DNA of 64,000 nucleotides, taken from contig JAGIQG010000014.1 of NCBI GenBank assembly GCA_024679065.1, positions 28,024,001 through 28,088,000 on the forward strand, in the 5' to 3' direction. The notes below the pieces were generated by a model. It was not told the origin of the DNA. It was given only the letters and a program-made list of their open reading frames with translations, and searched no databases. The position numbers and the translations under genes were made by a program. This DNA is from Sphyrna mokarran (Eukaryota). Positions 21,104 through 64,000 of the stretch are shown piece by piece (within the stretch, counting starts at the first letter, position 1; every line of letters starts with the position of its first letter).

Positions 21104-21469
21104 CACATTCAAAATTGAAAGATACCAAACATTGGCTCAGTAGTGCAAACCTAGTTTAATATTTGCCCTTAAAGACAAACACAAACTGAAAGGACATAAT
21201 AGAATGTTAAATGGTTTTAAGGCAGAGAACTTGGAATGTAAACTAACACTGTGGCAGCTGGATATGTTGGTGGTAAAAGTCAGTGTAGAAAATATATGAC
21301 GGATAATAGCTTGTCTCATTTCATAGTGTTGTACATTACTGGGAAAGAACAAATTGTGACTACGTCAAGGAAAATCTTATCACTGTCAGAACTAATATTA
21401 GAATCTAAAGTTCAACTGACCAGATTCTACAACGGATGTAACCTAGATTGTTCCAACCTGCAATTGGTG

Positions 21470-21736
21470 TCCAGAGCAATTGCTTGTGTTGTGGCTTATT
21501 TCATTGTACAATTATTGTTTCTTAGGTAAGTTTCTGGAAAAACAATAATGCATTATATCATCCATGCCAGTGAGTAATTGATACAATCTGGCTAATAATT
21601 GTGTCCTTTGCCTATCTGTTCATTCTCTATACACTTACTCTGTCAATGCAATGAGCACTGAGTTATTACTGTCTTTATCTGGATTGTTTCAGGTCCAGTC
21701 TTCTCTGTAAGAGGATCTGAGGTGCGAGGATTCCTG
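21470..21736 (+). pseudogene. Relic TIM leader exon, short intron and first 44 nt of an IgV exon
   Basis: Hydrophobic AIACVVAYFIVQLLFL with gtaagt donor (21526) but no ATG and wrong phase; acceptor ttatctggattgtttcag and exon start (21693) G-P-V-F-S-V-R-G-S-E-V-R-G-F-L match 24188 and 49361, then homology stops at about 21736. Confidence 0.8.
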
Positions 21737-21939
21737 CGATACACTGCAGACACCATGTCAGAGACAAAGGTGAATCTAGAATGTGCTAAGGCCTTAACAC
21801 TCAGCTAGAAGCACAGCCTGAGTACCGGCACCTCAAACTCTTATCAAGCATATCAGGACAGAATTAACCAAAGGTTCAACTCCAGCCAGACGATTTTTAT
21901 CATTCACTCAGATCATTCCTGTCTGCAGTGTTCAGCAGA

Positions 21940-21991
21940 ATGTTAGTAACTGAACTTGTGCCTCATTTCACTATATTAATTTTTACTTTAG
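21940..21991 (+). CDS. TIM-like gene copy A, signal peptide exon (MLVTELVPHFTILIFTL-G)
   Basis: ATG 21940, 52 nt, phase-1 G|GTAAGT donor in frame with IgV exon at 24188; hydrophobic core. Confidence 0.7.
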
Positions 21992-22394
21992 GTAAGTTTC
22001 TGAATTTTAGATTTTCTTTTGCATTATATCATGTTAATTTAAGTTATTTAAAGATACATACTGACTTTATGAGGGATAGAACATTAATCTACTAAAATAG
22101 TAAAGGATGGGGTTGCTAAATAACAAGGGTTTGGTTAAATAAACCATGTTTGTGTTACCTTGAGCTGAGGAGTTTAAGGAATTGTCTAAGGGATTTGGTA
22201 GGGCAGATACAATACAAGAAATCATTTTCCCCTGCAAAGTGAATTCAGAATAGGATGGATGCAGCATCTGAATTACTTAGCTCATTCAAGAGCGAACTCA
22301 GGAAGAATTTTATCACACAAAGGGAAGAGAAATCTGAAAGTTTCTCCCAAAAGCTTCTGGATCCTGGATTAAAGGGTGCTTTCATGAGTGAAAT

Positions 22395-23800
22395 CAAAGA
22401 ACAAAGAACAAAGAACAAAACAGCACAGGAAACAGGCCCTTCGGCCCAACGAGCCCGCGCCGCCACCCCGATGTTCCCATCTCTACCCGCGATCCCTGTC
22501 CATATTTATAGATCAGTGGATTTAAAAACCAAATTTGAGACAATTTAGGGAGAATTTGTTTTGCCAATTAGCCTAAGAGCATATCTTTGGGATGTGGGAG
22601 GAAACCAGAGCACCCGGAGAAAACCAACGCAAGCACGGTAAGAATGCGCAAACTCCCACAGACACAGGCCCAAATCCATGTATCTGCACAGCACAGCGAT
22701 ACTCACTGGGCTGTCATGTTGCCCATCAGAATGTCCAGGTCAAGCGTACACAAACAACGTGAAGCAGTAGGATACTCTCGAAAAAGATCCAAGAGCAGTC
22801 CTCTCACGACCCATCGCGTGTATGCCCCTCGTTAGACAACAAGGTGGACCAAAGCACCTGTAGGATAAAAACAAGTACATCAATATCATCATCTATTTAC
22901 ACACTTCCCAGGGACTCCCAAGGCTCATGATCCCTATTTTAAATCAGTTTTCTATACCCCTCCATTCCCATTCTGTTCATGTGCCCATCTAAGTATTTCT
23001 TAAATAACTCCAGAGTACCTGCCTCCACCACTTTACTTGGCAGGGCATTCCATACCCCCACCACCCTCTGTGTGAAAAAACTCCCTCTAGCATCCAAATT
23101 ATACCTTACCCCCCTCACCCTAAGCCCATGACCCCTCGTGCTATTTGAGTCCATCCTAGGAAAAAGCTTAACCCTGTTTAGTCTATCAATCCCCTTCAAA
23201 ATCTTGTACACCTCTATCAGATCTCCTCTAAGTCTACGTCTTTCTAAGGAAAACAGTCCCAATTTGCCTAATCTCTCCTCATAACTCAGACCTTCCATAC
23301 CAGGCAGCATCCTGGTAAACCTCCTCTGCACTCTCTCCAGAGTCTCCAAGATCCTTCTGGTAGTAAGGCGACCAGAACTGGATGCAGTATTCCAAATGAG
23401 GTCTAACCAACGTTTTATACAACTGCAACATTAAAGGCCAGCTCTTGTACTCTATACCCCTTCCTATAAAGGCTAACATACTATATGCTTTCTTCACAAC
23501 CTTCTCCACTTGCTCTGCCACCTTCAGAGACTTGTTCACCTGCACCCCCAGATCCCTCTGCGTTTCTATACTCTTAATAGGTCTACCCTTTATCATATAC
23601 CTCCCCCCTACATTCTTTCTCCTGAAATGCATCACCTCACATTTATCAGGATTGAATTCCATCTGCCATCTGTCTGCCCAAGCTACCAGCCTATCTATGT
23701 CCTGCTGTATTGCCTGACAAGTCCAGCCATCTTTGTATCATCTGCAAACTTGCTGATCACTCCACTTACTCCCTCTTCCAAGTCATTTATATATATTACA
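22395..23800 (-). mobile_element. Young 5'-truncated CR1 LINE with long V-domain-containing 3'UTR, in intron 1 of TIM copy A
   Basis: FADDTK, MEFNPDKCEVMHF, LVRPHLEYC, FFTQRVVGVWNALP; nearly identical to 60672-61967; (ttgttct)n tail. Confidence 0.92.
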
Positions 23801-24187
23801 AATAGAAGAAAAGAGAAGTGTATGATAGGTCGAAGCAGCTGGGAACCGAGACAGCATTGAAGGAATATAGAGAGAGTAGGAGGGAGCTCAAACAGGGAGT
23901 TAGAAGGGCAAAAAGGGGGCATGAAATGATTTTGGCGGATATATAGTAGATATAATCAGTAGATAGCTAAGAATATGGAGCTGAGGTGGATAAGTGAAAT
24001 GCTGGCACCGACCAGCCTTGATCTTACTGAATGGTTGGAGCATGATTGAATGTCCTATTCTTGCTCCTGTCTTACACACGAGCTGGTATTTTCAGTTTTT
24101 TGCATCTGTCTGGCCACACTCCTTTCACTTTCTCTCTCACTGCAATGGGATACTGAATTATTACTGTCTTTATCTGGATTGTTTCAG

Positions 24188-24535
24188 GTTCAGTCCCCTC
24201 TGTAAGAGGATCTGAAGTGCGAGGATTCCTGGGGCAGTCAGTCACATTGCCCTGCACGTACTCTGTTACACAGAATGGTAAAACTGAAATGTGCTGGGGC
24301 CGGGGATGGTGCCCTATATCGCACTGTTCACAAACACTGATTGAAACAAATGGGAAAACTGTAACTTCCAGAATCTCTGAAAAATACCATCTTGATGGTA
24401 AAATAGAGGAAGGGGATGTATCTCTCACCGTGGATAATCTCAGTGAAGGAGACAGTGGCTGGTATTGCTGCCGTGTAGAGATATCCGGCCTTCTTAATGA
24501 TCAGAAAGAGAATTTCAATCTGCTGGTTTTGGAGG
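24188..24535 (+). CDS. TIM/HAVCR-family IgV domain exon, copy A
   Basis: ag/gtaag bounded 348-nt phase 1-1 exon; VTLPCTY, MCWGRGWCPISHC, GDVSLT, DSGWYCCRVEISGLLND: six cysteines and FG-loop xxND motif diagnostic of TIM-1/3/4 family. Orthology to HAVCR1, HAVCR2 or TIMD4 cannot be assigned. Confidence 0.95.
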
Positions 24536-24623
24536 GTAAGTCAGTTCAATATTATACATTACTAATATTTCTCTCATTTCAATACTGATTTGTTGTTGAT
24601 ATCTGTGATAAATCAGAGATGTC

Positions 24624-24965
24624 ATAGAATCCCTATTGTGCAGAATGAGGCCATTGGGCCCACTGAACCTGCAACAATGATAATCCCACCCTAGGCCCTA
24701 TCCCAGTAACCCCACATATTTACCCTGCTTATTCACCTGACATTAAGGGGCAATTTAGCATGGCCAATCAATCTACACCACCGCCCCCCCCGCCTCCACA
24801 CACACACATCTTGGACTGTGGGAGGAAACCTAAGCAAAGAGAAAACCCGTGCAGATACGGGGACAACATGCAGATTCCACATAGAAAGTCAACTGAAAGT
24901 GGAATTGAATCTGGGGGCCCTGATGCTGTGAGGCAACAGTGCTAACAACTACACGACTGTGCCTT
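24624..24965 (-). mobile_element. V-SINE (HE1-like)
   Basis: Reverse-complement copy (catagaatccct...ggggcaatttagcatggccaa...ctgtgaggcaacagtgctaac). Confidence 0.8.
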
Positions 24966-25107
24966 CCTGAATATTGGGAGCTGTGATACGTTTACACAAT
25001 GCAGAAGGTGGTGGCGTACAGTTTGAATTTATTGATATCTTAAGGAAAAGAGTTTTGTGTATTTGTTATAGTGACAGAACATGGGCAGAAGAGATACCAA
25101 TGTCTCG

Positions 25108-25256
25108 TACTGCTGCCGTGTACATAGTATTGGCCTCTTTAATGACCAGAAAGTAAATTCCAGTCTCCTGCTTTTGGAGAATCTGTTCAATATAATCCAT
25201 TCATTGTATTTCTCACACCTGAATTGCTTATCTAGATTTATTGTCGCTATCTCTGT
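25108..25256 (+). pseudogene. Relic 3' end of a TIM IgV exon (YCCRVHSIGLFNDQKVNSSLLLLE) plus homologous intron
   Basis: 25108-25179 translates to the F-G strands of the TIM IgV; donor GT lost; downstream sequence resembles 24541-24607. Confidence 0.85.
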
Positions 25257-26439
25257 TTAATGTCAAGGCTTATGCTAAACGTAGGTGCAGTACAACAGAG
25301 AAAAATACAAAAGTGGAATCTGTCTGCTGGAGCATGTTATTCCTTGCTGAATCTGGAGGCAGGCAGCTGTACATCTTTAACTGGTTGCATAAGTATTGCC
25401 CTTACGCATTTAAAACAGCATAAGGCCTCAATTCCAAATTTGTAAGCTCTTTAATGAGTAACTGTCCTCTTTGTGAAACATCTGGTTATAGGAGTTTGGG
25501 GACCACCTTTGATATTCCGTCTAATTTTCCTTTGCCATGTGTGGTTTGCTTATTGTCAAGTGTGGTACATTTCTGAGAGAATGTTGCTGGTCTTTATGGA
25601 AATGATGACAAAAGACTAACAACTTAAACAATTTAGCAGCTCTTACATGCCAGGAATGTGATTGCACTATTGACATGTTACTTGCACAGGTCATCAAGAT
25701 GTACAGATGAATACAAACATCTCAATCCTGACTGATGAGTGCTGGGTAGAAATTTAGAGGCTAAAATGAATGGTTGAAAAGTCAATGTGCTGGGAAATCC
25801 AGAAGGAAAAACTCTAGCCGTGATTCAACTCAGAAACAGAAAACACTAGAAGTACTCAGCAGGTCTGGCCACTTCTATGGAGTGAGAAATAGATTGGCAA
25901 TCCATTCAAACTTTTCCAAGCCTCAATGCTGCTCTGCATTTCTTGCCTGAATTTCCAAGCCTGGTTTATGGAGAGCAGCATTGCTCAGAGACCTCCAGAG
26001 CAGCATTGTAGCAAAGTGATGAAGACAGAATACTTCCCATTTTTTACGGCCTTAGTTTCCTCATCATAAGTTCAAATGTCCAGTGCAAATGTTAGTGAAT
26101 GGGCTGAGTGTTTGAAGAGGGAATGAATAGGATGGTAGGTGGATAGGTTTGTAGGTAGATGAAGTGGTAGCTGGGTCAGGGAATAATCAGGTTGGCAGGG
26201 TGGACAGTTGAGTTGGATTGGGAGGGGCAATCAAGTGTTTGGGTGGTCAGGAAGTACTCTGGTTGGGTTAAGGTGGATCAGGGGTGACTATACGATAGGA
26301 GGTAGTCAGCTTGGGGATTGGGATTTAGTGGGTTAGTCGGGAGGTAAGAATAAGTACTGAGGGATAGTCGGGGGTAGGGTATTGTGAGTTAACATAATGA
26401 TTGGATGTTTTTGGAGGGGAGACAGGGAGTGTCATTATG

Positions 26440-28894: not shown

Positions 28895-28974
28895 GTAAGA
28901 AGATTTCGAATGGCACTAATTCAGCAACTACCTCACTGACTAAGCGAAGTTCAACTCAAACTCCAGAGTTGACG
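28895..28974 (+). CDS. TIM copy A Ser/Thr-rich stalk (mucin-like) exon (GKKISNGTNSATTSLTKRSSTQTPELT)
   Basis: Long pyrimidine tract + tcag acceptor, phase 1 start in frame with IgV exon, G|GTGAGC donor (phase 0), S/T-rich with NGT sequon. Confidence 0.8.
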
Positions 28975-32870: not shown

Positions 32871-33167
32871 ATACCAGGAGTGCTAGTTAGCAACTTGATA
32901 TCTTCAATTCTCTTGGCCTTTCGTGTTTCAGTTTTAATCTGCTTCATTGCAATCACTGTGCTCCTGTGTCGATGGAATCACGTTAAACCTGAACCAAATT
33001 GCTTTCTGCTTGACTGTCCCATGGGTGAAAGTGCAGCACCAGTTAAAGCCAAAGCTATTTTTTTGTTGCTTCACACTAGTTCTAAATCACTAACTAACGT
33101 AACTCCAAATCCACACAAATGTTTCACTGTTTCTAAAATTAATTTTTTTTCAATGTCATTTTTTTAG
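32871..33167 (+). CDS. TIM copy A transmembrane exon (IPGVLVSNLISSILLAFRVSVLICFIAITVLLCRWNH...); 3' boundary uncertain
   Basis: tctatttcag acceptor, phase 0 matches stalk exon; long hydrophobic run followed by RW; runs to stop at 33165-33167 unless weak donor at 33025 (G|GTGAAA) is used. Confidence 0.72.
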   Translation: MPGVLVSNLISSILLAFRVSVLICFIAITVLLCRWNHVKPEPNCFLLDCPMGESAAPVKAKAIFLLLHTSSKSLTNVTPNPHKCFTVSKINFFSMSFF

Positions 33168-35677
33168 TGTCTCTAAGAAAAGATAGCAGTAAAAAGGGTT
33201 CCAATCTTTTACAAAATGTTCTTCCACAGTTACAAAAATACATGTAAACCTGTACGGATTAGGCCACTGCTTACACTGTCACTTGCAATGATATAAGGGA
33301 GTAAACACTAGAACAGTATATGCACAGAATTGAAAACAAACACTGCCAAAAATTTCTTCAGCACAGTTATTATTTATTTTTCAACATGATGGATAAATCT
33401 TTCCACCCCTTCCCACCTCCCCCCTACTTTGAAACAGGCATTTCCACTTCCCACCCATCCCCAACAGTCAATGCCGACACTCTGTCCTTCTCTTCCAAAC
33501 ATTGGGCCCCTTCCCCCTACGCATACAGCCAGTCAGGCACCCCCCTTCCTCACAAATATCGGACCCCTTACCCCCATCCCCCACCTACACAGTCAACACA
33601 AGCATCCACCCACACCTACCCCCCTTGACAAATAGCTATCATTAGCATCCCCAGTTCCCAAGTCTGCTTCCCCCTAGCACACCACAAATAAATAAATCCC
33701 TTCCTCCCCCATGAGACTTTCACAAGATTCTGCCCTGGTACTGTCCCCAGCTTTGTAACCGGGCATTGCCAACCAGTGCCTAGGGGCAATGGCCAGGGGC
33801 AATGGCAGGTCACTGCCTGGTCTTGTTCCTCTCCCCAGGGGGTATGTTCACTTCTATGCCCTGGGGGGATTCCCAAGACTGGTTCACATCTGGGTGATGT
33901 CATGTCAGCATGGCTTGACTATACTGCAGGAGTCAATATATGGTGCGGAGGGCAGTTAATGACATGTAAATACATTAAAATGTATTTAAATCAGATTCAT
34001 ATCTGTTATGGGCATGGACCTGATTATGTCACCGGTGAAGGGTGGCCAAAATCAGAAGTCATGATCTTGCCAACGAGATCCTCAACTTCTGTGGTTTACC
34101 AAGTCTTTAGCCAACCCCTGCTATTTCCATGGACGGTGAACACAGGCTCAAGTTTGCCTCCTCTGAGTCTGAAATAAAGGCACATTGCTTCACTGCTGAA
34201 GGAAGATAAGCCATTTCAATGTACTAGTTTATCCTTTTATACAAACACATTTCTCCAATGCCATGCCAGCTACTGATTTGTCTTCGTGTAAAGAAGTAAT
34301 TTTTGACTTTTCGTTTATTCGCTCATGTGTTGTGGGCTTCACTGATAAGACTAACAATTGCTCCTCATCCCTTGGGAACAATTAAGAGTCCATCAGATTG
34401 TGTGGGTGTGGATTCAAATGTAGGCTGATGGATGGCAGATTTCCTTTCCTAGTGAATCAGCTGGTTTTTTATTACAATTGATAGTTTAATAGCTCTCATT
34501 CCTGAGACTAGTTTTTCAATTCCAGATTTTCTGTTTAATTTATTGAGTTTATTACTTGAGTTTAAATTCTCTTAACTGTCATGGTGGAATTTGAAACCAG
34601 TCTCCAAAGGATTGGCTTGGTCCTCTGGATGATTAATCCAAGGATATTACCACTATACCGCTGTCTCCCTCATCTCTGCAGTGCTGGACTTGTCTTTTAC
34701 CAATTTGTACCCATATCGCTGAACCATTCAATAGCCCAGTCCATCAGCAAACCAGCCTTCCATCCATTAACTCTGTCTGTGTTTCCAATGCTTCAGAAAA
34801 GCAGCCAGCATAATCAAAAACCCCACACTTCCACCTTTTTTCCATTGGGAAAAAGACACAAAAGTCTGAGATCAAGTACCAGCCCACTTAAAAACAACTT
34901 CTTCCCTGCTGCCATCAAACTTTTGAATGGACCTACCTTACATTAAGTTGATCTTTCTCTGCACCCTAACTATGGCTATAATACTACATTCTGCATCCTT
35001 TCCTTTCCTTCTCTGTTATGGACACTATGAACAATATGCTTTGTCTACATAGAGTGTAAGAAACAATACTTTTCATTGAACACCAATACCTGTGACAATA
35101 ACAAATTAACTCAAATCAAAAAGCATTTTAGCTATAGTGGCAAGTTTCATTGGGTAACTCCTACTTTGGAACAAAACACATGTGTTTCATTATTGGAGGA
35201 TTTTTAATGCTCAGTGGAGCATTGGTATCTTTAGTGCCAGTTAGATAAATTAGAAGTGATTAAATGAAAAGGTAAACAGATGAGTAAATGAAAATGAGGA
35301 GAGAAATGCCAAGGCTCTGAATAGAAGTCTAGAATGAAGCTAATGATGGTTGAAGGTTGCCATTTGTTCTGCGTGTAACTGGTCTTATTCCCACTTTGGG
35401 GTTAAGAATTTCTCAGGCCTCTGCCCAATCCCAGCGTCACTCCTGTCAGCTGGTTAGAATCCTTTCCAATTTGAGGATCTAAGCAGTTTGCCAAACTTGG
35501 AACTTCATCATAGAGCACCCTCGTGGAAGCTGAAACTTAACATATGATGATAGCTCAAGAGTGAAAAAGGCAAGCAATTGTGAAACATTGACAGAAATCT
35601 ATGTTTGCAAGAGTTCTGAAAAATAAACATTTCTAAAATTCTGGAAGCACATTGTGTAGCCCTGACAAGGGGAAAAA

Positions 35678-37810
35678 TACAGTAAGAAGTCTCACGACAC
35701 CAGGTTAAAGTCCAACAGGTTTATTTGGTAGCAAATGCCACTAGCTTTCAGAGCACTGCTCTTTCATCAGGTGAGTGGGGAGTTCTGATCACAAATAGGG
35801 CATATAAAAGCACATAATAAGTTTACAGAATACTGATTAAAATGCAAGTCTTTACAGCTAATTGTGCAGACAATGTGAGTGGAGATGGCATTAATCATAG
35901 ATTAAAGAGATGTGTATTGTCTCCAGACAGGACAGTAAGTGAGCTGTTGCAAGCCCAGGCCAGTCATGGGGTTATTAATAGTGTGACATGAACCCAAGAT
36001 CCTGGTTGAGGCCGTCCTCATGTGTGCAGAACTTGCCTATCAGTCTCTGGTTGGCAACTCTGCGCTATTGTGTGTTGTGAAGGCTGCCTTGGAGAACGTT
36101 TACCCAAAGATCAGAGGCTGAATGTCCGTGACCACTGAAAGGTTCGCCAACAGGAAGAGAATAGTCTTGTCTGGTGATTGTCGAACGGTGTTCATTCATC
36201 CATCGTCATAGTGTCTGCATGGTTTCCTCAATGTATCATGCCTCGGGACATCATTTCCTGCAGTGTATCAGGTAGACAACATTGGCTGAGTTGCAAGAGT
36301 TTATACTATGTACCTGGTGGATAGTGTTCTCACGTGAGATGATGGCATCTGTGTCGATGATCAGGCATGTTTTGCAGAGGTTGCTGTGGCACGGTTGTGT
36401 GATGTTGTGGTCACTGTTCTCTTGAAGGCTGGGTAGTTTGTTGCGGACAATGACCTGTTTGAGGTTGTGCAGTTGTTTGAAGGCAAGAAGTGGGGGTGTG
36501 AGGATGGCTTTGGCAAGATGTTCATCTTCATCAATGACACGTTGAAGACTCCGGAGAAGATGTTGTAGCTTCCCAGCTCAGTGCTTCACTGTACCTCAAG
36601 CCTATGGATAACCTCACTATGCTCCACTTCTCCAGCTTCCATCCTAAACACATTAAAGAAGCTATCCCCTATGGACAAGCCCTCTGTATACATAGAGTCT
36701 GCACAGATGAGGAGGATCGCAACAGACACCTCCAGACACTGAAAAATGCCCTCATAAGAACAGGATATGGCACTCAACTCATTGATCAACAGTTCTGACG
36801 CGCCGCAGCAAAAAACCACACTGACCTGCTCGGAAGACAAACATGAGACACGGTGGACAGAATACCCTTCATTGTCCAATATTTCCCTGGAGCAGAGAAA
36901 CTATGATATCTTCTCCGGAGCCTTCAATATGTCATTAATGAAGATAAACATCTTGCCAAGGCCATTTTCACACCCCCACTTCTTGCCTTCAAACAACCGC
37001 ACAACCTCTAACGGACCATTGTCAGCAGCAATCTACCCAGACTTCAGGAGAACAGTGACCACAACACCACACAGGTCTGCCACAGCAACCTCTGCAAGAT
37101 ATGCCAGATCATCAACACGGATGCCATCATCTCACGTGAGAACGCCATCCACAGGTACATGGTACATACTCTTGTAACTCGGCCAACGTTGTCTATCTGA
37201 TACACTGCAGGAAAGGATGTCCCAAGGCTTGGTACATTGGAGACACCATAACAACAGATGAATGAACAGCACTCGACAATCACCAGGCAAGAATGTTCTC
37301 TTCCTGACGGCGAACACTTCAGCAGTCATGACATTCGACCTCTGATCTTCAGGTATATGTTCTTCAAGGTGGCCTTAATGACACACGACAGCGCAGAGTC
37401 GCCAAGCAGACACTGATAGCCAAATTCCACACACATAAGGATGGCCTCAACTGGGATTTTGGATTCATGTCACACTATTTGTAATCCCCATGACTGGCCC
37501 AGGCTTGCAACATCTCACTTACTGTGCTGTCTGGAGACAATACACATCTGTTTAACTTATGATTAATGCTATCTCCACTCACATTGTCTGCACTTTTAAG
37601 ACTTGATTAGCTGTAAAGACTCACATTTTAATCAGTATTCTGTGAACTGTGTGTGTGCCTATATATGCCCTGTTTGTGAACTCCCCACTCACCTGATGAA
37701 GGAGTAGAGCTCCTAATGGCGTATGCTAGCAAATAAACCTGTTGGACTTTAACCTGGTGTTGTGAGACTTCTTACTGTGTTTACCCTGTCCAACGCTGGC
37801 ATCTCCACAT
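35678..37810. mobile_element. Penelope-like retroelement (RT C-terminus + GIY-YIG endonuclease) in inverted arrangement
   Basis: + strand 36585-37810: LHFSSFHPKHIKEAIPYGQALCIHRVC and NVVYLIHCRKGCPKAWYIGDT (GIY-YIG); 35678-36580 is a reverse-complement copy of about 36887-37777. Confidence 0.9.
35737..35775 (-). ncRNA. Minimal type I hammerhead ribozyme motif in Penelope pLTR
   Basis: Minus strand: cac CUGAUGA a agagc-agu-gcucu GAAA gc UA gug; core boxes, stem II, palindromic AGCU helix III and cac/gug stem I present. Confidence 0.7.
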
Positions 37811-38448: not shown

Positions 38449-38468
38449 GTCGATATGCAGCAATATGA
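38449..38468 (+). CDS. Possible terminal cytoplasmic exon of TIM copy A
   Basis: Good acceptor (tttttgtttttgatcctcag) in non-repetitive sequence; reads G-RYAAI* if joined from 33024 or VDMQQYEPTMAEALPLF* in phase 0. No homology support. Confidence 0.3.
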
Positions 38469-47994: not shown

Positions 47995-48980
47995 AATCAT
48001 GTCTGAAGACTTTTATTGTTCGAAGTTTTTGTTGGACCGCTTCATTTCGGAGGCCACAAACTAAACGGTCCCGTAATACATCTTGCAGGAAACTGCCAAG
48101 TTCACACACTTCGATCTGTCTTTTTAACACAGCCACAAATTGAGCAATGGAATCTCTTTCCTGCTTTGTGTGCTCTTTCGTAAAATCTTCCGCTATCATG
48201 AGTGGGTTTTTGAGTGAAATGATTCACTAGCCCCTCACACAAATCCACTAAGTGTTTCTCTGTCGACTTTTCAGGCTGTGTAAGACTTCTTCACGTCATG
48301 AACATTTTACACCATCCCCCTTCCCCCCCCCGTCGTGCTGAGAATGACCCCTGCCAGGAGGTTTTCATCCATCTTGTTAGCTTTGAAGTGAAAATGCTCA
48401 TATATTAGCGCCCAGCCCTTCATTAAATGGTCCCCATCACTCTGAATTAACCGGCCATTTTCTGTTCCCGCTGCCGTGTGGTTTTCCCGCCACCTGTGTT
48501 CAATAGCCACTTGCAGCCGGGTCTACTTCTTCCACACTTTTTGCGCCAGCCATTCCCTCACTAGTTGTGGTCTCCTGCACGCAACCCGAGTCCCTTCCTG
48601 TCCGATGATCTTGGTGGCCCAGGTGAGAATACCTCTCCCATTCTGGCCGTCAACTCAAGCCCTAGACCCCTTGTGACTACAGCCCGATGCCTGCTGTGTG
48701 CCTTTTTATTGGAATCTGGGTGATATCTGCTCTTCCTCCTTCCTTCCACCAGTCCAGTGGAAACACATAGTGGGCTGTGACTCAGCTTTGTTGCCAGTTG
48801 TTAAATATGAGCTCCAATATTGGACTAATCAGAGACCACGAGCTAACTAAGTGTAAACTAAAAGGAACTATTTATTCAACCTCATGTCAGTAGCACAATG
48901 ATGATCGAGCAAGCTCTACCCAGGGTGGAGCTTGTGTCCTGGGTCACCAAACCTTTTAAAAGAACATACGCACAACTACA
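47995..48980 (-). mobile_element. 5' part of a Gypsy-like LTR retrotransposon (LTR 48799-48980, PBS, gag fragment)
   Basis: Minus strand TGTAG...TAACA LTR with AATAAA, followed by actggcaac PBS-like motif; gag-like SIAQFVAVLKR..CELGSFLQDVLRDRLVCGLRNEAVQQKL. Confidence 0.72.
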
Positions 48981-49123
48981 TATATAGTCTTCCTTAATTT
49001 CATTGTGGTTCCATAGTACTGATAACTGAAGGAAACTCTTAACCACATACTGAACTAATATTAAAACCAAATATTTCAACTGACCAACTGCAACTTAGAT
49101 AGTTCGAGCCTCCAGCGTCCATC

Positions 49124-49166
49124 ATGATATTTGTGACTCATCTGATTGTTCTAATTGTTCTTTTAT
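49124..49166 (+). CDS. TIM-like gene copy B, signal peptide exon (MIFVTHLIVLIVLL-C)
   Basis: atcATG context, 43 nt, phase-1 GTAAGT donor at 49167, 194-nt intron, in frame with IgV exon; spliced MIFVTHLIVLIVLLCSVPSARG looks like a cleavable signal peptide. Confidence 0.82.
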
Positions 49167-49360
49167 GTAAGTTTTTGAGCTTAAAACATAAATTTTCTTA
49201 CACTATTATGTTAATATAGAATCATTTAATATGGTCGATGTGTTACTGACACAGTCCAGTTGATAAGTTGTGTACTGTGCTGCCTGTTAATTCTCTGTAC
49301 ACTTTCTCTGGCAATGCAATGGACACTGAATTATTACTGTTTTTATCTGGATTGTTTCAG

Positions 49361-49708
49361 GTTCAGTCCCCTCTGCAAGAGGATCTGAAGTGCGAGGATT
49401 CCTGGGGCAGTCAGTCACATTGCCCTGCACATACTCTGTTACACAGAATGATAAAACTGAAATGTGCTGGGGCCGGGGATGGTGCCCTATATCGCACTGT
49501 TCACAAACACTGATTGAAACAAATGGGAAAACTGTAACTTCCAGAATCTCCGAAAAATACCATCTTGATGGTAAAATAGAGGAAGGGGATGTATCTCTCA
49601 CCGTGGATAATCTCAGTGAAGGAGACAGTGGCTGGTATTGCTGCCGTGTAGAGATTATCGGCATTTTTAATGATCAGAAAGAGAATTTCAATCTGCTGGT
49701 TTTGGAGG
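49361..49708 (+). CDS. TIM/HAVCR-family IgV domain exon, copy B
   Basis: 348-nt ag/gtaag exon, six cysteines, DSGWYCCRVEIIGIFND; 339/348 nt identical to copy A. Confidence 0.95.
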
Positions 49709-50861
49709 GTAAGTCAGTTTAATGTTATATTTTTCTGTGCACGGGGGTGCTTCGAGATTTTCTAACCTTGCCGTTAGTGCCAATCCTGGAGAAGAGTGCG
49801 CGACTGGCGAGTCTCCAGTTCCATCCAAACATTGCGAACCGGATCACACCTAAAAAGGCATATTTAAATATGCATAGTCCATTCAACTCCCAGCGCACGG
49901 AGGTCTCTGGCACAATAATGACGAGCATCACTAGTGGACTTCACTAGCAGTGACCTTGCAACGCCAAGGGACTCGGAAATCATTGCAGTCTCAGGTGGTC
50001 ATAGGCAGTGCCTATCTGGCTGTGCCCATCTGACACACTGGCATTAGCCAATAAGATACCCAGTGGTGTCAGTTACGTAGTGTGCCAGGGACAATTCTAA
50101 GAGGCAGCCTGAATGAGGGGGAGGGCAGGGTGGGGAACAAGGAGGGGCTATGCAGAGGACTATGGGGGTTATGCAGAAGTGGATCATGTTGGCAGTCAAG
50201 ATGGGGAGACACGTCGGGAATCATGATAGGGGGACATGTTCAGCGTCAGGCAGGGCGACCCATCAGGAGGACCCTGATGTCCTGATATCCATGTTATGTA
50301 TCACGGAGGGAGTGAGGGAGCATGCTGATGAGGAACAGTTCTGATGTCTGTGCGGAGGGTGCGGGGATCTCCCATTGCACTGAGAGATCAGGGCACCCTT
50401 ACGATGCAGCAGTTAAGTGCACCAAAACAATCTGAACAGCATGTTTTAGCCTCCCCCAAATCTGCAGAAAAGTGATTGAATGTGAGAGGATTGTGGTGTG
50501 GAGCAGGCCTGAGAGACCGGTCCTTTGTTCTTGCCATTTAGAGATTTTTTGGAAGAATTCCACTCATTATTTCTGTTTGTCTCACCTGCTGTTTCCAGTA
50601 CTTTCTGTTTCTAAACCATATGTAGGGTTAGCCACCTGAAGCACATTTGTTCCCAAAGCCTGTTGTTACTCTGCCGACCCCAGAGATAGGCAGCTGTACA
50701 ACTCCAACTTGTTACATGGATTCCTCATACTGCAATCCAGAGATTAGCAATAATTCTCTCTCCAACACTTACTATAATGTAAGGCCACAGTTCCATAGTT
50801 GTAAGTTCTCTAATAACAATCTGTCACTTTCCTCTTTGTAAGGGGTCAGGGAGAGATAAGG

Positions 50862-51205
50862 AGGGCGGCATGGCAGCACAGTGGTTAGCACTGCTGCCTC
50901 ACAGCCCTGGGGACCTTGGTTCAATCCTGGCTTCAGGTGACTGACTGTGCGGAGTTTGCACGTTTTCTCTGTGTCTGCATGGGTTTCCCCCGGGTGCTCC
51001 AGTTTCCACCCACACTCCAAAGAATGGCTATGTTAAGTTGCCCCTTAGTGTCCCAACTGTATAGGTTAGATGAATTGGCCATGGTAAATGTGTGGGACAG
51101 TGAGGATAGGATGAGAGGGCCTGGGTAAGATACTGTGTCAGAGAGTCAATGCAGACTTGGTGGGCTGAATGGTCTGTTCTGTATGTAGGGATTCTGTGAT
51201 TCTAT
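50862..51205 (+). mobile_element. V-SINE (HE1-like)
   Basis: gggcggcatggcagcacagtggttagcactgctgcctcacag head; absent from the paralogous duplicated block. Confidence 0.85.
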
Positions 51206-53316
51206 AAAGTAATATATTTCCAAGATTGATTGTGGCTCCAATGTGGCACATCTGGTGATGGAAGTTTAGGGCCACCTCTGATATTCCTGTGATTTTGCTT
51301 TGCTATGTGATACATTCCTGAAAGAACATTGATCACCTCAATCCTGACTGGTGCATTCAAAACCTGAACCATGGGCAGATATTCAGGGGCTGAAATGAAT
51401 AGTCAAAAGTCATGTGCTGGGAAAGAGGGCCTGGATGAGGGGGTGCAGAGGTGTGCTATCAACTGAGGCCTGTGCCTCTAATGGGGACTGGGTTCACTGG
51501 CCTGTCAATGGAGATGCTCAATGTCCAAAGTAAACAAAAAGGAAAACAGACCGTCCTGATGTTGGGAGGAGAAAGGCCCTGAGCTACAGGGCATCATCAT
51601 CGAGGGGACCAGAGTGGGAGAGTATTTAAATACACAGACAAGAGACCAGGAAAGGAAGGTTTCAGAGCCACAGTTCTTTGAACAGCAGGGATGGGGTTTA
51701 TTTTGGAGTTCTACAGCTAACCCCTTGAACTTAAACATTGTCTTAATTCTTTCTCCAGGTTAGCTTTTTATCAGTCTGAATTAATTATAACAAGTAACTA
51801 AAATGAGTTGTGGGTTACTGGCATGACATTTTTGTCCCAGAATACATATACCTCTTTTTCTGTGAGTGAGATGGACTGACTGAGGTATCTTTTGGATAGT
51901 GTAGCTATGTTTAAATTTTAAATGAAATAATATTTGCAAAACGTTCAAAATAAAATACAAATTGAATGCATCTACCTGCTGAACTTCAAAATGAAGAAGT
52001 AAATGAGAGAGAGTTGTGCAATCTGCAATAATATGGGATATTTGTTTCCCTGAGTATCACACATTCCAAATCAAGCATTTCAGACAGGGCACCTTTAGGT
52101 GGCTGAATGCAAAATTCCACCAGTGGCTGCCAAAACCCTGACATTTAACAGTGGAGACAACTCCCCACTTTCTATTCTTCCAATTGCAGCCTCATGTTTG
52201 CTGTATCTCTTTCTGCCTGCTCCTGTTTTCCACGTTGGGATTTGATTCTCAGTTCCAGTCCCTCCTTCAACTTTCACTGCAACAGAAAGTCACACATTGT
52301 TCAGTTTTGTGGTTAAACATCCTTTTCACTTAGATGTAACTGCTGTAAAAAGTTTGGCGCAGCAATGAGAAAGCACTAACCCAAAACCCTAACCACAGTG
52401 GAAAAACAGAGAATTCAACAAGAGGAAACAAAAAATGACTGGTGGCTCATGGTGAATATGTTATTGTCAGAAAAGGTTTTGGGAATCTGGATAATTGAAT
52501 GTCTCAGTGGAATGTCTGAATCCATCTGAACCTCTGACAAAGTGCCCCAGCCTTATGACCTCGATACCTTTTTCTTTTGTGAAAAATGTAAAATTGTGGA
52601 AGCAATGAGGAATTTGAGATTGGGTGCCAAAATAATTCCCTGAATCAACAATTGCTTTTTGACTGGTCTGTGTGAGGGAATAAAGGTAAGTGCCCAGTGA
52701 CAGCGATGTGTCAATAATGGTTTCAAGCCTAACATTAAACTTAACCATAACAGTGTTTTCAATAATATTTTTTGAGGCTAATCTAACCCAACCACAATCT
52801 AATCCCAGCCCCAAATATCATACTGAAATCAAAACTTGAAGTGGGCTTTATGAATAGGTACATGGGATGGGATTTGCCGACCTCACTGTTGCGGGATTAC
52901 ACAGGGGAATGCAGTGGGTCAACCAAAAGTTCATTCACTTTCAAGGAGACGGGACCAATCTGATGACAGATGACCTGAGAAAGTCCTGCCGATAGAAGTC
53001 AAAATGTCAATAAATTGTTCTATTGTTCTTATTTGCAACACTTTTGAAACAGTTCAACCCGACTGTGGCTATTTTTCCCCAATCTTGGTGCCCAAAAGGT
53101 TGTGAGATGGAAGGTTGAAAGGGTTAGAGGAGGGAGTGGGGATAAGGGGCATGGAAACATCAGAAGCACCAGAACCCAGAATTGCTCTCCTTGGCCCTGT
53201 TGGGAAACACAGTAAACTCCTGTCTTGGTCTCAAAATAAAAACAGAAAATGTAAGGCCACAGTTCCATATTTGCAAGTTCTCTAATAGCAATCAGTCACT
53301 ATCCTCTTTGTAAGAG

Positions 53317-53528
53317 ATGTAGAGATGCCTGCATTGAACTGGGGAAGCACAGTAAAAAGTCTCACAACATCAAGTTAAAGTCTGACAGGTTTATTTGGTA
53401 GCACAAACTTTTGGAATCTCACTCCTTCTCCAGGTGAATCTCACCTGAAAAAGGAGTGAGATTCTGAAAACTTGTGCTACCAAATAAATCTGTTGGACTT
53501 TAACCTGATGTTGTGAGACTTCTTGCTG
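53317..53528. mobile_element. Palindromic Penelope pLTR-derived insertion with 13-bp TSD
   Basis: About 85-bp inverted arms around caggtga-atc-tcacctg; ctctttgtaagag at 53304-53316 and 53529-53541; empty paralogous site near 50832. Confidence 0.85.
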
Positions 53529-54024
53529 CTCTTTGTAAGAGGCCAGAGAGAAATAAGTAACATAGTTTCAAAACTGATGTGGCTCCAGTGTGACATCTGG
53601 TTGTGGAAGTTTTACGACCATCTCCAATATTCCTTCCAGTTTCCCTTTGCCACGTGTCGTTTGTTTATTGTATAGTGCCGTACATTCCTGAGGGAACATT
53701 TATCCCATCAATCCTAACTGGTGGATTTAATGATCCAGAGCCCTGAAATTCCAAAGCTAAAATGAACAATGAAAAGTCATTTGCTGGGAACAGGGCCTGG
53801 GAGAAGGGGTGCAGACAGTGCTTATCACCAGGACAACATGCTTCTCGTGTCCAAAACAGACAATCTGAATCATCCCAATTTCTTCATGTTGGGAAGGGGA
53901 AGGGCCCATTCACCATCACAGAGGGGACTAGACTCAGCGACTTAGAGAAGAGATCAGAAAGAGAAAGTTCTGGGGCCACATTTGTCTGAACAGCAGGGAG
54001 GGCTTTTCATTGAATCCTTTCAGT

Positions 54025-54322
54025 ACATAAGGAGGCCATTTGGCCCATCAAATCTGTACCAACTACAATCCCACTCAGGCCTTATTCCTGTAAATCCACA
54101 CATCTACTTTGCTAATCCACCTGACACTAGAGTCAATTTAACATAGCCAATCCAACTAACCTGCGCATCTTTGAACAGTGGGATGAAACCGAGCACCTGG
54201 AGGAAACCCATGTAGACACTGGGAGAATGTGCAAACTCAACACATACAATGACCCAAAGCTGGAATTGAACCTGCATCTCTGGCATTGTGAGGCAGCAGT
54301 GCTAACCACTGTGCCACCATGT
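54025..54322 (-). mobile_element. V-SINE (HE1-like)
   Basis: Reverse-complement copy, absent from the paralogous block. Confidence 0.82.
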
Positions 54323-55584
54323 GCACCATTTTACTTTGGAGTTCTGTAACTAACACCTACAACATGAACTTTATCTTAATTCTTCCTTCAATTTAGTTTT
54401 TTGTCAGTCTGAATTAATTATAATATCAAGCAACTAAAGTGAGTAATGGGCTCCTGACGTTTACGCTTCTATCCCGGAATATGCACTACCCTTCCTTTCT
54501 GTTAGTGAGGTGGGCTGACTGATGTACCTTTGGGATAGTGTAGCTCTGCTTAAATTTTAAATGAAATAATATTTGCAAAGCATGCAAAATAAAATACAAA
54601 TTGAACGCATCTATCTGCTAAACTTAAAAATGAAGAAATAAATAAGAGAGAGTTGTGCAATCTGCAGTAAAATGGGACATTTGTTTCCCTGACATCATAC
54701 AATCCAACTCAGGCGTTTTAATGGGATTGAGGGTTATAGATAGGCCTGGTAGGTAGGGATCTGATCAGTGCAACTTGTGGGCCGAAGGGCCTGTTTGTGT
54801 TGTAGTATTTTATGTTCTATGTTCTATTTAATTGTCAGCCATTCTAAGGGGCTTTGGTAAAACTGCGGGGGCTGTGGCCAGGGCAAACCTCCAGTTCCAT
54901 TAGGTATACTGGCATGGAATGTCTGAATTTATGTGGACCTCTGACCAAATACCTCAGATTTTTTTGTTTCTACATCTTTACACTTTCCATAGCAATCAGG
55001 AGCTCACAATGCATGCGAAGATAGTTCCCTAAATCAACAATTGCTTCTGGTTGTTTTCTGACTAGTCTGAGGTCAGTGAAAGCGATGTGTCAATAATGGT
55101 TTCAATCCCAACACTAAACTTAACTATAACAATGTTATCAAGGATATTTTTTAAGGCTAGCCCTAACCTAATCACAACTTAATCCCAGCCCCAAATTTCA
55201 CACAGAAACCATGGCAGGAAATTTGTGGTTGTCTCTGCCGGTGGGGTTTTCTGGTCCCTCTACAATGAATGGAAACTTGGCTGAGTGCTAAATTCTCGAC
55301 CCTAATCGCTGACTTGCCCTGGGGGTGATGGTGGTGGCTGGAGGGGAGGGGGTGGGTGGTTGGATATGAACAACCAGAAACCTCCGGCCTACAACTTGCA
55401 GTGGACTTTATAAATAGACACATGGGCTGTGGTTTTCTGTTGCAGGGTTAGCCATGGGGGATGCGATGGGCCAGCCAAGTTTATTAACTTTCGGTGGTTC
55501 TGGAAAAACACGGCTGAGGCAGGGCTGAAAAGTCCTAATCGTAAGGCTCAAAATCTCAATAAGTTTTTCTAAAGCTTTTTAACA

Positions 55585-56455
55585 TGAGAACACAAGAACT
55601 AGGAGCAAGAGTAGGCCACCTGGTCTCTCAAGCCTGCTCCACCATTCAATAAGCTTATGACTGATCTTTTTGTGGACTTAACTCCACTTACTCCCCCTAC
55701 CCACCATAATATTTAATTCCTTTACTGTTCAAAAATTTATCTACCCTTGCCTCAAAAACATTCAACTGCTTCACTGGGCAGGGACCTCCATAGATTCACA
55801 ACTCTTTGTGTGAAGAAGTTCCTCCTCAACTAAATCTGCTTCCCCTTATTTTGAGGCAATGCTCCCTAGTTCTAGTTTCATCTGCCAATGGAAACAACTT
55901 CCCTGTTTCTATCTTATTTATTCCCTTCATAAACTTATATGTTTCTATAAGATATCGTCTCATTCTTCTGAATTCCAATGAGTATAGTCGCAGTCTACTT
56001 AGTCTTTTCATAAGCCAACACTTTCAACACCAGAATCAATCTTGTGAATCTCCTCTGCACCCCATCCAGTGCCAGTATATCCTTTCTTAAATAAGGAGAC
56101 CAAAACTGTACACAGTACTCCAGGTGTGGCCTCACCAGCACCTTATATAGCTGCAACATAACCTCGCCATTTTTAAAATCCATCCCTCTAGCAATGAAGG
56201 ACAAACCAACTCCTTGTAATTCTTGCACAAGGACACCCAGGTCCCTCTGCACAGCAGCATGCTGCAATTTTTTACCATTTAAATAATAGTTCATCTAGCT
56301 GTTATTTCTACCAAAATGGATGACCTCACATTTACCAATATTGTACTCCATCTACCAGACGCTCACTCAATCAATTAGACTATCTCTCCCTTTGCAGGCT
56401 TTCAGTGTCTTCTGCACACTTCACTCTGCCACTCATCTTAGTGTTATCTTTGAAA
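55585..56455 (-). mobile_element. CR1 LINE 3' fragment
   Basis: QLYKVLVRPHLEYCVQFWSPYLRKD, LYSLEFRRMR. Confidence 0.9.
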
Positions 56456-56615
56456 TAGTTCGGCCCTAATGTGACAGAAGAAGCAAAAGAGTTCATGATT
56501 TCTTCCTGATCTGCTGTGAAACACAGTAAACACAAGCCATGGTCTAAAAATAAAAAAATAAAAAGATGCTGGAAGTATTCAGCAGGCCTAGCAGTATCTG
56601 TGAAGGGAGAAATAG

Positions 56616-60671: not shown

Positions 60672-61967
60672 GCAGCGACATAGATAGGCTGGTAGCTTGG
60701 GCAGATGGATGGAAGATGGAATTCAATCCTGATAAATGTGAGGTGATACATTTCGGGAGAAAGAATGTAGGGGGGAGGTATATGAGAAAGGGTAGACCTA
60801 TTAAGAGTATAGAAATGCAGAGTGACCTGGGGGTGCAGGTGAACAAGTCTCTGAAGGTTGCAGAGCAAGTGGAGAAGGTTGTGAAGAAAATATGCTAGCC
60901 TTTATAGGAAGAGGTATAAGTACAAGAGCTGGCCTTTAATGTTGCAGTTGTATAAAACGCTGGTCAGACCTCATTTGGAATACTGCGTCCAGTTCTGGTC
61001 ACCTTACTACCGGAAGGACGTGGAGACACTGGAGAGAGTGCAGAGGAGGTTTACCAGGATGCTGCCTGGTATGGAAGGTCTGAGTTACGAGGAGAGACTA
61101 GGCAAATTGGGACTGTTTTCTTAGAAAGACATAGACTTAGAGGAGATCTGATAGAGGTGTACAAGATTATGAAGGGGATAGATAGAGTAAACAGGGTTAA
61201 GCTTTTTCCTAGGATGGACTCAAATAGCACGAGGGGTCACGGGCTTAGGGTGAAGGGGGTAAGGTATAATTTGGATGCTAGAGGGAGTTTTTTCACACAG
61301 AGGGTGGTGGGGGTATGGAATGCGCTGCCAAGTAAAGTGGTGGAGGCAGGTACTCTGGAGTTATTTAAGAAATACTTAGATGGGCACATGAACAGAATGG
61401 GAATGGAGGGGTATAGAAAACTGATTTAAAATAGGGATAATGAGCCTTGGGAGTCCCTGGGAAGTGTGTAAATAGATGATGATATTGATGTACTTGTTTT
61501 TATCCTACAGGTGCTTTGGTCCACCTTGTTGTCTAACGAGGGGCGCACACGCGATGGGTCGTGAGAGGGCTGCTCTTGGATCTTTTTTCGAGAGTATCCT
61601 AGTGCTTCATGTCGTTAGTGTACGCTTGACCTGGACCATTTGATGGGCAACACGACAGCTCAGTGACTATCGCTGTGCTGTGCAGATACATGGATTTGGG
61701 CCTGTGTCTGTGGGAGTTTGCGCATTCTCCCCGTGCTTGCGTGGGTTTTCTGTGGGCGCTCCGGTTTCCTCCCACATCCCAAAGATGTGCTTTTAGGCTA
61801 ATTGGGAAAACAAATTCTCCCTAAATTTTCTCAAATTTGGTTTTTAATCCACAGATCTATAAACATGGACAGGGATCGTGGGTAGAGGTGGGAACATCGG
61901 GATGGCAGCGCGGGCTCATTGGGTCGAAGGGCCTGTTTCCCGTGCTGTTTTGTTCTTTGTTCTTTGT
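60672..61967 (+). mobile_element. Young 5'-truncated CR1 LINE with V-domain-containing 3'UTR
   Basis: MEFNPDKCEVIHFG, LVRPHLEYCVQFWSP, FFTQRVVGVWNALP; near-identical inverted partner of 22395-23700. Confidence 0.92.
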
Positions 61968-64000
61968 CCAGACAGACTCATGGCGTCATGAAGCTGGCTG
62001 CCACAACTTTCCACTGCACAGTCATCTCCCCTAACAATATCCAAGAAGGTATATCTATTAGAAAGGGTGTTGGCCACAGGGAACTCCTGAACTACCTGTC
62101 TTCGTCTATTCTGCCTAGGGGGTCACCCATGCCCTTTCTGCCTATTCAATCTTTATCTGTAGCATGATCTCCTCACCTAATGTGCTAATCATTACTTCCT
62201 CAGTATCACGGATGCTCTACAGTGAATTCACCCTCAGCTCCAGCTTTGAAATGTGGTTAGCTAGCGGCTTTAGTTGGACATACTTTCTGTATATGTGATC
62301 ACCAGGGACAACTGAAACTTCCAAGATTTTCCAAGAAAGCACAGGAGGAGCATATCATGGGTGTGAGTTCTCCTGCCATGACAACCTTCAAACTCTTTAA
62401 TTACTTCCTTTCTAACAAAACATTATGCTTACATAAAAATATTATCAACTTGCATTTCTCATGGCAGTACCTTGATCAATCAGAATAAATTTGCTTGGAT
62501 TAAATTTGAAGAAAGGATTGGCTGTTAACATCTCTGTTCTGCAATCTCCATGGTCATGTCTTTACCAATTAGAGTCCACTTGCCAACAGTCAGCAATCTC
62601 TTCTAATCAGCATAAATGGCTGTTCCCTTTACTATTGGTATTTCTGTGAATTTGTCCTGATGAGTGCAAAACAAAAAGCTTCAATAGCATGTCTCTTTTC
62701 TTTTAACAGTAATCAAAATATGTACTATCAAACTTGATCATTTTATGATTGCTATTTGATAAATATTAATGCAAAGTGAAGATGTTAATTATATTTAGTT
62801 CTTTAAGTATATTTAGCTCTTTCCTAATCTAATATGACCTGTTGAGTTTAGTTGCAGGAAATTGTTGCGGATGACACAATTCACTACTCATTGACTGAGT
62901 AAAAGATGAATCTGGAATCAGTCTTTTACTTAACATAAGATTAGTCAGAAAGCTTGGAGGGCACAGGACTCCTTTTTCCTTCTCCCACAGAGGTGGAAAC
63001 TGATTTTTATGTACTCCTATCATGCCCTACTCCTTCCACAATTACTAACAGCTGCTCTCACTTACAAACTGGAACATGCAACAGCATTCCAACATTGACG
63101 CTGAAGAAAATAATTCTGTTTTTCACATATTATGTGCTAATCTGCATATTCCAATCCATATGGAAGATAAAATCATCCACTAAAACCATTATTTTGTTGC
63201 TACATGCTTGTTTAATCTTAGCATTTGTGCAAGGTACCACTTCACAGCTAAAACCAGGTCCTTATATATGACATCTGCTACAGTCATAACTAATTTTATG
63301 CTTTGTAATTCAACCCAAATTCTCTGCTGCTTACTTCCTACTTGTTAGATTCTCTCTTGAATTGATGTCACCATTAACTATTAAGGCAATTAGTCTGTCT
63401 CTGCTGTATCCTCTATCTTTCCTGTTGATCTTGTTTATATTTGGTATATTTTAGATATAGATGAATAGTATTGGTAGAACTGCAGACCACCGTAGATGTA
63501 AGTTGCTGCTGAATCGGTTGCCAGTAATATCTTTTTTTTTAATCTATCACAGCTCCTTCCACAATCACGATTCCCCCAATCACTACTGAACATGGTAAGC
63601 ATAGCAAATGACATCAAAAAAATTTTTGACTGTATTTATAGAAACTCTGAGAAAGAAAACAAATATAGATATTTAATATTAAATTTTAAGTGAATTTTGC
63701 TTTGATACTTGAAATATTTTATAGATTTTAAAGGTCACATATTGTTATGACCGGATGAGAGGATTTGCAGTGTATCTTGCTCCAATACTCCTCAAGTCGT
63801 ACCATTAGTTTAAATGTTAAATGTTTAAATATTAATTCACTCACCAAAATGGTCAATTATTTCCTTTACTATGATTAGACCCAGAATAAAAGAGACTTTA
63901 ACCAGGTTTCTTTCAATAAACTAGAATCATAGAATAAAATCATAGAATCCCTGCAGTGCAAAAGGAGGCCATTTGACCCATCTTCTTTTAAATCTTACCA

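Follow-up and report, generated by a model that had tools for sequence, protein, structure and literature searches.

A TIM front half of one paralog type between two IgV exon relics of another type in Sphyrna mokarran

RESULTS

The TIM cluster and gene A

Gene A, a member of a cluster of TIM genes, is located in a window of 64,000 nucleotides of Sphyrna mokarran DNA (G000:C446:28024001-28088000; genome of 2.77 Gb), and its front half, which comprises an intact leader exon and an intact IgV exon, is situated between two relics of IgV exons. The window was read together with 40 kb upstream and 160 kb downstream of it, a region of 264 kb in total with zero N, and positions beyond 64000 continue the window's own numbering. 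Six leaders are present in the cluster, those of the 5' relic (21470), A (21940), B (49124), C (81630), the orphan copy E (104911), and D (134577), together with four whole IgV exons (A, B, C, D) and the two relics. The membrane exons of A, B, and C are of a short-tail type; D, known as tblastn exon matches, has a long tail ending in EENVY.

The IgV exon of A scored above the cut-off of the Pfam V-set model, and its translation contains six cysteines, so that the four extra cysteines of the TIMs are present. All 15 of the 15 PDB sequences found with E <= 1e-8 were TIMs, the best solved structure being mouse TIM-1 (2or8; E 3.3e-36), and the nearest named proteins were HAVCR1-like proteins of sharks (69-80% identity). 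The positions of all features are listed in Table 1.

Table 1. Features of gene A, the relics, and copy B within the window
Feature	Position	Strand	Remarks
Promoter-side region of the old B-type gene	21292..21469	+	Aligns to B 48980-49120
Dead leader exon (start approximate)	21470..21525	+	No ATG; donor GTAAGT intact at 21526
Short intron 1, 167 nt	21526..21692	+	Without the insert common to A, C, D, and E; acceptor intact at 21692
5' IgV relic, exon nt 1-114	21693..21793	+	13-nt deletion after nt 44; TGG-to-TAA stop
Left junction, 15 nt assigned to neither side	21794..21808	.	No target-site duplication seen
Promoter-side / 5' untranslated sequence of the cassette	21809..21939	+	Found by profile of five other promoters
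Intact leader exon of A, 17 codons + 1 nt	21940..21991	+	
Intron 1 of A	21992..24187	+	Old insert common to C, D, and E (22125-22400; 23953-24068); younger repeat 22401-23705
Intact TIM-type IgV exon of A	24188..24535	+	Six Cys; FG loop LLND; GT/AG ends; 97% identical to B and D
Cassette intron 2, C/D-type	24536..25097	+	Dispersed repeat at about 24622-24950; match to C stops exactly at 25097
3' IgV relic, exon nt about 265-347	25098..25179	+	FG loop LFND; donor lost by 4-nt deletion
Intron after the 3' relic	25180..25900	+	Distal part B-type
Ser/Thr-rich stalk exon of A	28895..28974	+	
Transmembrane exon of A	32871..33167	+	Arg in helix; donor deleted; read-through to stop at 33165
Short last coding exon of A	38449..38468	+	Acceptor intact
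Copy B: leader 49124-49166, short intron, IgV exon 49361-49708	49124..49708	+	FG loop IFND
Copy B, first stalk exon	63553..63594	+	Remainder of B beyond the window end

Inner and outer pieces

A front half of the C/D type, 3.3 kb in length, lies between flanks of the B type. The inner piece (about 21809-25097) carries the intact leader and the intact IgV exon with its GT/AG ends, which an earlier note on this DNA had correctly located between the relics. Within intron 1 of this cassette, the insert aligned with C, D, and E with scores of 105, 150, and 93 (each 0/60 shuffles), compared with scores of 18 and 19 (56/60 shuffles) for the intron of the relic or of B. The distal part of the cassette's intron 2 matched C and D (62 and 63; 0/60 shuffles) and not B (13/60), and the distal intron following the 3' relic matched intron 2 of B, as had been claimed before (score of 118, reached by 0/40 shuffles), and gave no match to C or D (33/40 and 26/40 shuffles). 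These two independent two-state intron markers agree, which means that the outer pieces probably derive from one gene of the B type that was interrupted by a paralog's front half. The exon sequences cannot decide this grouping because the live IgV exons have been homogenized. Markers of the C/D type are found within 60-115 kb.

The intron 1 insert is likely a derived insertion. When it was considered as a remnant of a long interspersed nuclear element, only the 3' piece gave a clear match to a local repeat tail (0/300 shuffles), and the 5' piece gave marginal or nonsignificant results (10, 12, and 80 of 300).

The 5' relic and the left junction

The succession of a dead leader, a short intron, and an IgV relic, reported in the earlier note, is present as described, with donor, intron length, and acceptor as in Table 1. 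The dead leader ends in phase 2, whereas the leaders of the paralogs end in phase 1. The best local alignment of the upstream region plus the short intron was obtained with B, in agreement with the earlier note (score of 92 versus 44-53 for the 4 other leaders). A promoter profile, the input of which included that very region, matched 21292-21560, and the final 42 nt of the short intron are identical to those of A, B, and D at 36-38 of 42 positions.

An IgV profile built from the four whole exons, with the relics excluded, found the 5' relic at 21693-21793 (E 3.4e-12) and the 3' relic at 25097-25179 (E 2.8e-12), and the seven other matches had E >= 0.9. The 5' relic had been described as only the first 44 nt of the exon, ending at 21736. 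This was an error, which arose from stopping at the 13-nt deletion; the relic extends to 21793 or IgV nt 114. Identity is 39-40/44 before the deletion and 37-38/57 after it, and 0 of 1000 shuffles scored as high as this second part. Among 16 further TIMs of sharks and rays, 10 share 8-9 of 18 residues with this second part and the other 6 share 6-7, compared with 5-6 for A and B, as would be expected of an exon that was frozen before homogenization.

A short-read contig of run X1, possibly the source sample, crosses the left junction with 0 differences. A second contig of 162 nt (run X2, labeled as another organism; depth of 3.1) spans 21615-21774 without a gap and with 5 differences, and thus has the 13-nt deletion of the relic as well.

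The 3' relic and the right junction

The sequence switches between the C/D type and the B type exactly at 25097/25098. The earlier note had recognized that only the 3' end of an IgV exon with a lost donor remains here but had placed its start at 25108 instead of at this switch. The two relics follow each other in exon order without overlap, and IgV nt 115-264 (about 150 nt) are absent. This missing middle part was not found beside either junction, where 730 and 201 of 1000 shuffles were as good, and gave no significant profile match in the 264 kb. Over 25 codons, the 3' relic displays a nonsynonymous distance (pN) of 0.15 versus a synonymous distance (pS) of 0.40, a coding imprint indicating that it was once a working exon. 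Of the 5 FG-loop sites at which B can be told from A and D, 4 have the B state in the 3' relic; three of these are adjacent and perhaps the result of one event.

Homogenized IgV exons

The IgV exons of A and B differ at 9 of 348 nt. Among the IgV exons of A, B, and D, pS is 0.04-0.06, versus 0.30 between the membrane exons of A and B; the leaders are about 55-65% alike, except for the pair C/E. In a tree of 20 shark and ray domains, the four live IgVs (A, B, C, and D, which belong to different tail types) formed one clade (97/94), and two Scyliorhinus canicula proteins with different tails paired in the same tree (100/95). The tail of B joined the Mustelus model P0005 (95/98), while the IgV of B joined A, C, and D; forcing B together with P0005 was not rejected (p-AU 0.072). 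The 97% identity of the A IgV to those of B and D was likely reached through gene conversion. This makes the earlier claim of a swapped ligand-binding domain largely moot today, because A does not possess a distinct domain at this level of pS.

The FG loop of B (49656-49666) reads IIGIFND versus ISGLLND in A, C, and D, with the rest of the exon being nearly identical; conversion may have spared this stretch of the ligand site. Five of the nine differences between A and B are in this loop. Counted as single bases, this clustering was reached in 45 of 200000 trials, but it was not significant once the three adjacent bases were treated as one event (13283/200000), and selection is not claimed.

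The product of gene A

Splicing of 21940-21991, 24188-24535, 28895-28974, and 32871 onward results in an open model of 258 amino acids with a signal peptide, IgV domain, 27-residue stalk, and one helix (hydropathy peak of 2.7 at residue 173). The extra stalk exon of B and C was not found in A. For the membrane exons of A and B, pN is 0.08, which is low compared with pS and indicates that this exon of A was under selection for much of its history. With its donor lost, it should yield either an abnormal read-through tail or a transcript using a weak donor at 33025 toward the last exon at 38449. The model has no tyrosine after residue 195, so that a cytoplasmic tyrosine motif like that of TIM-1 or TIM-3 is missing. 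TIM-4 is likewise not known to carry such a motif, and its absence does not exclude A from the TIM family. A protein search with the read-through tail retrieved only P0005, via the membrane helix. The proposal that the signaling half had been kept is consequently weak: A is a short-tail TIM without a tail tyrosine and without the donor toward the last exon.

The metal-dependent phosphatidylserine site of the TIMs has been defined as WFND (PMC9611583). The FG loop of A retains the N and D of this site, with L and L at the positions of W and F. As predicted from its sequence, the product is probably a type I membrane TIM of 258 amino acids that would still bind phosphatidylserine via the N-D metal site.

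That A uses the old promoter, as had been suggested, is unsupported in this form because the cassette brings about 130 nt of its own promoter-side sequence, starting at about 21809; the profile of five other promoters matched 21809-22009 with E 1.7e-21. The donor of the old leader and the following acceptor are intact, and transcripts starting at the old promoter could therefore use the relics as 5' untranslated exons. Such a transcript, spliced from 21525 to 21693, would contain three short upstream ORFs, of which none overlaps the start. Alternatively, the identity of about 90% around the relic acceptor may equally be a conversion tract. The chances that A is a working gene are about even.

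Other features of the cluster

Copy E (G000:C446:28128757-28129476) is an orphan promoter plus leader, the similarity of which to C is 84.6% over 942 nt. It is not followed by an IgV exon in the stretch up to D and is another partial front-end duplication within the cluster. In copy C (G000:C446:28110180-28110200), the usual IgV acceptor has changed from AG to GG, and about 12 nt are missing close to the start of the exon; an AG located 6 nt further downstream would preserve the frame, and the membrane helix of C is without Arg. Intron 2 of B contains an internal tandem duplication (50776-53249 versus 53248-56563, with blocks 70-93% alike). Two copies of a 1.3-kb repeat, 94% identical and in opposite orientation, are located in intron 1 of A (22401-23705) and in intron 2 of B (60672-61967), and the last intron of A harbors an inverted repeat pair of 0.9 kb (35675-36579 and 36890-37782; 83%).

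Four further TIM-like IgV exons, 41-53% identical to that of A, are clustered within 10 kb on a different contig (G000:C938:7448007-7457729) and possibly represent a multi-domain gene or a second TIM-like locus. Two segments of the Mustelus asterias model P0005 match noncoding DNA here (34129-34197, 3' of the membrane exon of A, and G000:C446:28091562-28091636, inside a B intron), so this public model probably has spurious exons. MED7, which we take to be a neighbor of the mammalian TIM cluster, is on the same contig yet 42 Mb off, and synteny by way of this gene was uninformative.

DISCUSSION

Origin of the nested arrangement

The favored reading, to which we give about half of the weight, is that a C/D-type front half was copied into the IgV exon of a B-type gene in one old repair or replication error, creating a hybrid gene with a new front on the old stalk and membrane exons. 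A break or a stalled fork at IgV nt 114 of the B-type gene would have been followed by a switch to a neighboring gene of the family, at about 130-145 nt ahead of the start codon of that gene, by copying of 3.3 kb including about 560 nt of the next intron, and by a return to the first gene at nt 265 with the loss of about 150 nt. The old leader and both exon pieces would then have decayed, and the 3' relic, being without an acceptor, would have turned into intron. Gene conversion involving A, B, C, and D would afterwards have made the live IgVs nearly identical and probably refreshed the acceptor region of the 5' relic, too. We infer that the lasting change was one of promoter-side sequence and leader and not one of the binding domain. 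A double template switch or a templated insertion, as a single event, would account for both junctions together with the loss of the 150 nt. With both junctions out of register, ordinary unequal crossing-over does not explain the arrangement. Retroposition or a cassette carried by a transposon was rejected because the introns were kept and target sequence was lost rather than duplicated.

The event looks old: the intron insert of the cassette is only about 65-73% identical to those of C and D, and the second part of the 5' relic is nearer to the TIMs of other sharks. In the Scyliorhinus torazame model P0067, the leader is similar to that of A, the extra stalk exon is missing, and the stalk has KR.STQ, as judged by eye. 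This is suggestive of A being orthologous to P0067 and of an event older than the catsharks, a lead only, since the tree was without support.

Several observations weigh against this copying event. A phylogeny of the 5' relic, run on promoter plus leader, was star-like, with the relic placed apart from B in all 4 alignments, and the tree of the tail proteins, with 1 of 6 inner branches supported, left A unjoined with B. The short intron is probably ancestral, so it excludes identities of the relic rather than naming one. Identity differs between the parts of the relics (about 90%, 65%, and 73-80%), and conversion has to be assumed in addition to explain this. There is no exact donor for the cassette, which is only about 62% like D in promoter plus leader, and visual inspection of the two junctions revealed neither microhomology nor a target-site duplication, in sequence that has since diverged by at least 20%. 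The QIDY/GRYCC motif, present in B's Mustelus counterpart, is missing from the 3' relic. As to the hybrid gene itself, a small deletion removed the donor of the transmembrane exon and A may be decaying; no transcript of A was seen, in a sole run guessed to be RNA that had no informative cover of 21155-22400. The intron markers bear out one part of the earlier proposal of an ancestral gene split by a paralogous insertion, namely, outer B-type pieces around a paralogous front half; its second part, a single gene and a single insertion, is the most economical history but goes beyond these markers.

The same arrangement could have been reached in two steps with one gene, which we consider unlikely but to be reckoned with. 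In an array O-B-C, a tandem duplication would have joined intron 2 of C to IgV nt 265 of O, making the hybrid, and a deletion from IgV nt 114 of the upstream O copy to the promoter of the upstream C copy would have followed, so that the relics would be two copies of one gene. Ordinary events would thus produce exactly the observed order of relic, cassette, relic, tail, B, and C, other partial duplications exist in the cluster (orphan leader E and intron 2 of B), and the blunt junctions fit equally well, but this requires one event more, and the deletion must by chance have ended in the same 348-nt exon of a unit of about 27 kb, upstream of the duplication point, as reasoned from the coordinates. 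Distinctly unlikely is a plain tandem array with two deletions, in which the relics come from two different B-type paralogs flanking a C/D-type gene. The trees, which cannot tie both relics to one gene, would allow this, as would the lack of directly comparable common sequence in the relics and their different divergence; a further gene of the B type and a B-C-B alternation in the array would be required, however, and both deletions would have had to end inside IgV exons in a non-overlapping order.

That the relics are decayed copies of A's own ends, made by two small local duplications, is very improbable. Each segment is present exactly twice, and the leader and tail of A, both resembling P0067 of S. 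torazame, may be native partners, but the introns on the relic side are B-type and those of the cassette C/D-type on both sides, which largely refutes this idea. An assembly artefact mixing paralogs or haplotypes has to be regarded as extremely improbable even though the read check was made at the left junction only and with a run that may come from the source sample itself: the relics have diverged by 10-35% from every live copy and possess their own deletions and a stop, the 264 kb are uninterrupted, the X1 contig agrees with the assembly and the X2 contig has the deletion of the relic, and the relic region occurs once in the assembly.

Meaning of the arrangement

The locus is an unusually legible record of the exchange of front and back halves within a tandem immune-receptor array. 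The displaced exon is still represented by its two pieces, which retain IgV sequence predating homogenization. Near-identical IgV exons mask old relationships between the paralogs, so that tails and introns are the better guide to the orthology of shark TIMs. Later sequence exchange has likely erased any change in ligand binding by the receptor. For the nesting alone, a functional effect is only putative, and the larger lead would be a paired-receptor layout with homogenized binding domains.

Short-tail forms with Arg in the helix (A, 32871-32975; B, G000:C446:28095452-28095560) are found beside long-tail EENVY/EENIY forms (D, G000:C446:28186760-28187882), and Arg was present in the membrane helix of 7 of the 9 short-tail shark TIM sequences examined. 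An Arg in the helix may be a sign of adaptor binding; EENVY is, as we assume, not a canonical immunoreceptor tyrosine-based inhibitory motif. Judged by these features, shark TIMs look like they have the layout of paired receptors, with IgVs near-identical within a species. Sharks might even run TIMs as paired receptors, the binding domains of which would be matched by gene conversion plus copying of leader-plus-IgV cassettes between tail types, a conjecture that we hold to be doubtful. Gene A would then be a fossil of the cassette route, a templated insertion in the germline by which a D-type front was placed on a short-tail gene before the catshark split, maybe transcribed through the dead leader with the relics as 5' untranslated exons. 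A full-text literature search, which covered few subscription journals, found no description of the gene structure or conversion of shark TIMs or of a paired-receptor layout.

Comparison with known systems

Like the members of the TIM family (HAVCR1/TIM-1, TIMD4/TIM-4, and HAVCR2/TIM-3), A has a six-cysteine IgV domain, a Ser/Thr stalk, and one membrane helix. It departs from the norm of this family by an FG loop of LLND instead of WFND, by a stalk that consists of one 27-residue exon, and by the read-through tail without tyrosine.

The LAIR1 and LILRB1 inserts in antibody genes are a known case in which the exon of an Ig domain, together with flanking intron, is copied into a different Ig gene. 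These inserts are somatic, come from another locus, and add a domain, whereas the cassette described here is germline, stems from a neighboring paralog, includes promoter-side sequence plus leader, and replaces a like domain. The main route of domain gain has been described as the joining of exons between duplicated genes that are adjacent (PMC2926785). Chimeras of adjacent genes, or those formed by fork stalling and template switching/microhomology-mediated break-induced replication (FoSTeS/MMBIR), have the front half of one neighbor joined to the back half of another, as is the case here; the difference is that both junctions here are nonhomologous, within the same exon type, and that the two halves of the displaced exon can still be recognized.

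For paired receptors (KLRC/NKG2, PIR, Ly49 with its "merohomogenization," and SIGLEC11/SIGLEC16), homogenization confined to the binding-domain exons of a species, with tails that remain distinct, is well described (PMC3210942, PMC5701461), and a nonfunctional copy such as SIGLEC16P can also join in conversion. Such conversion proceeds in register and leaves no relics; it accounts for the 97% identity here but not for a nested cassette that is out of register. Hybrid genes and homogenized binding domains are thus known from immune-receptor arrays, and the nested, out-of-register form is a variant of them.

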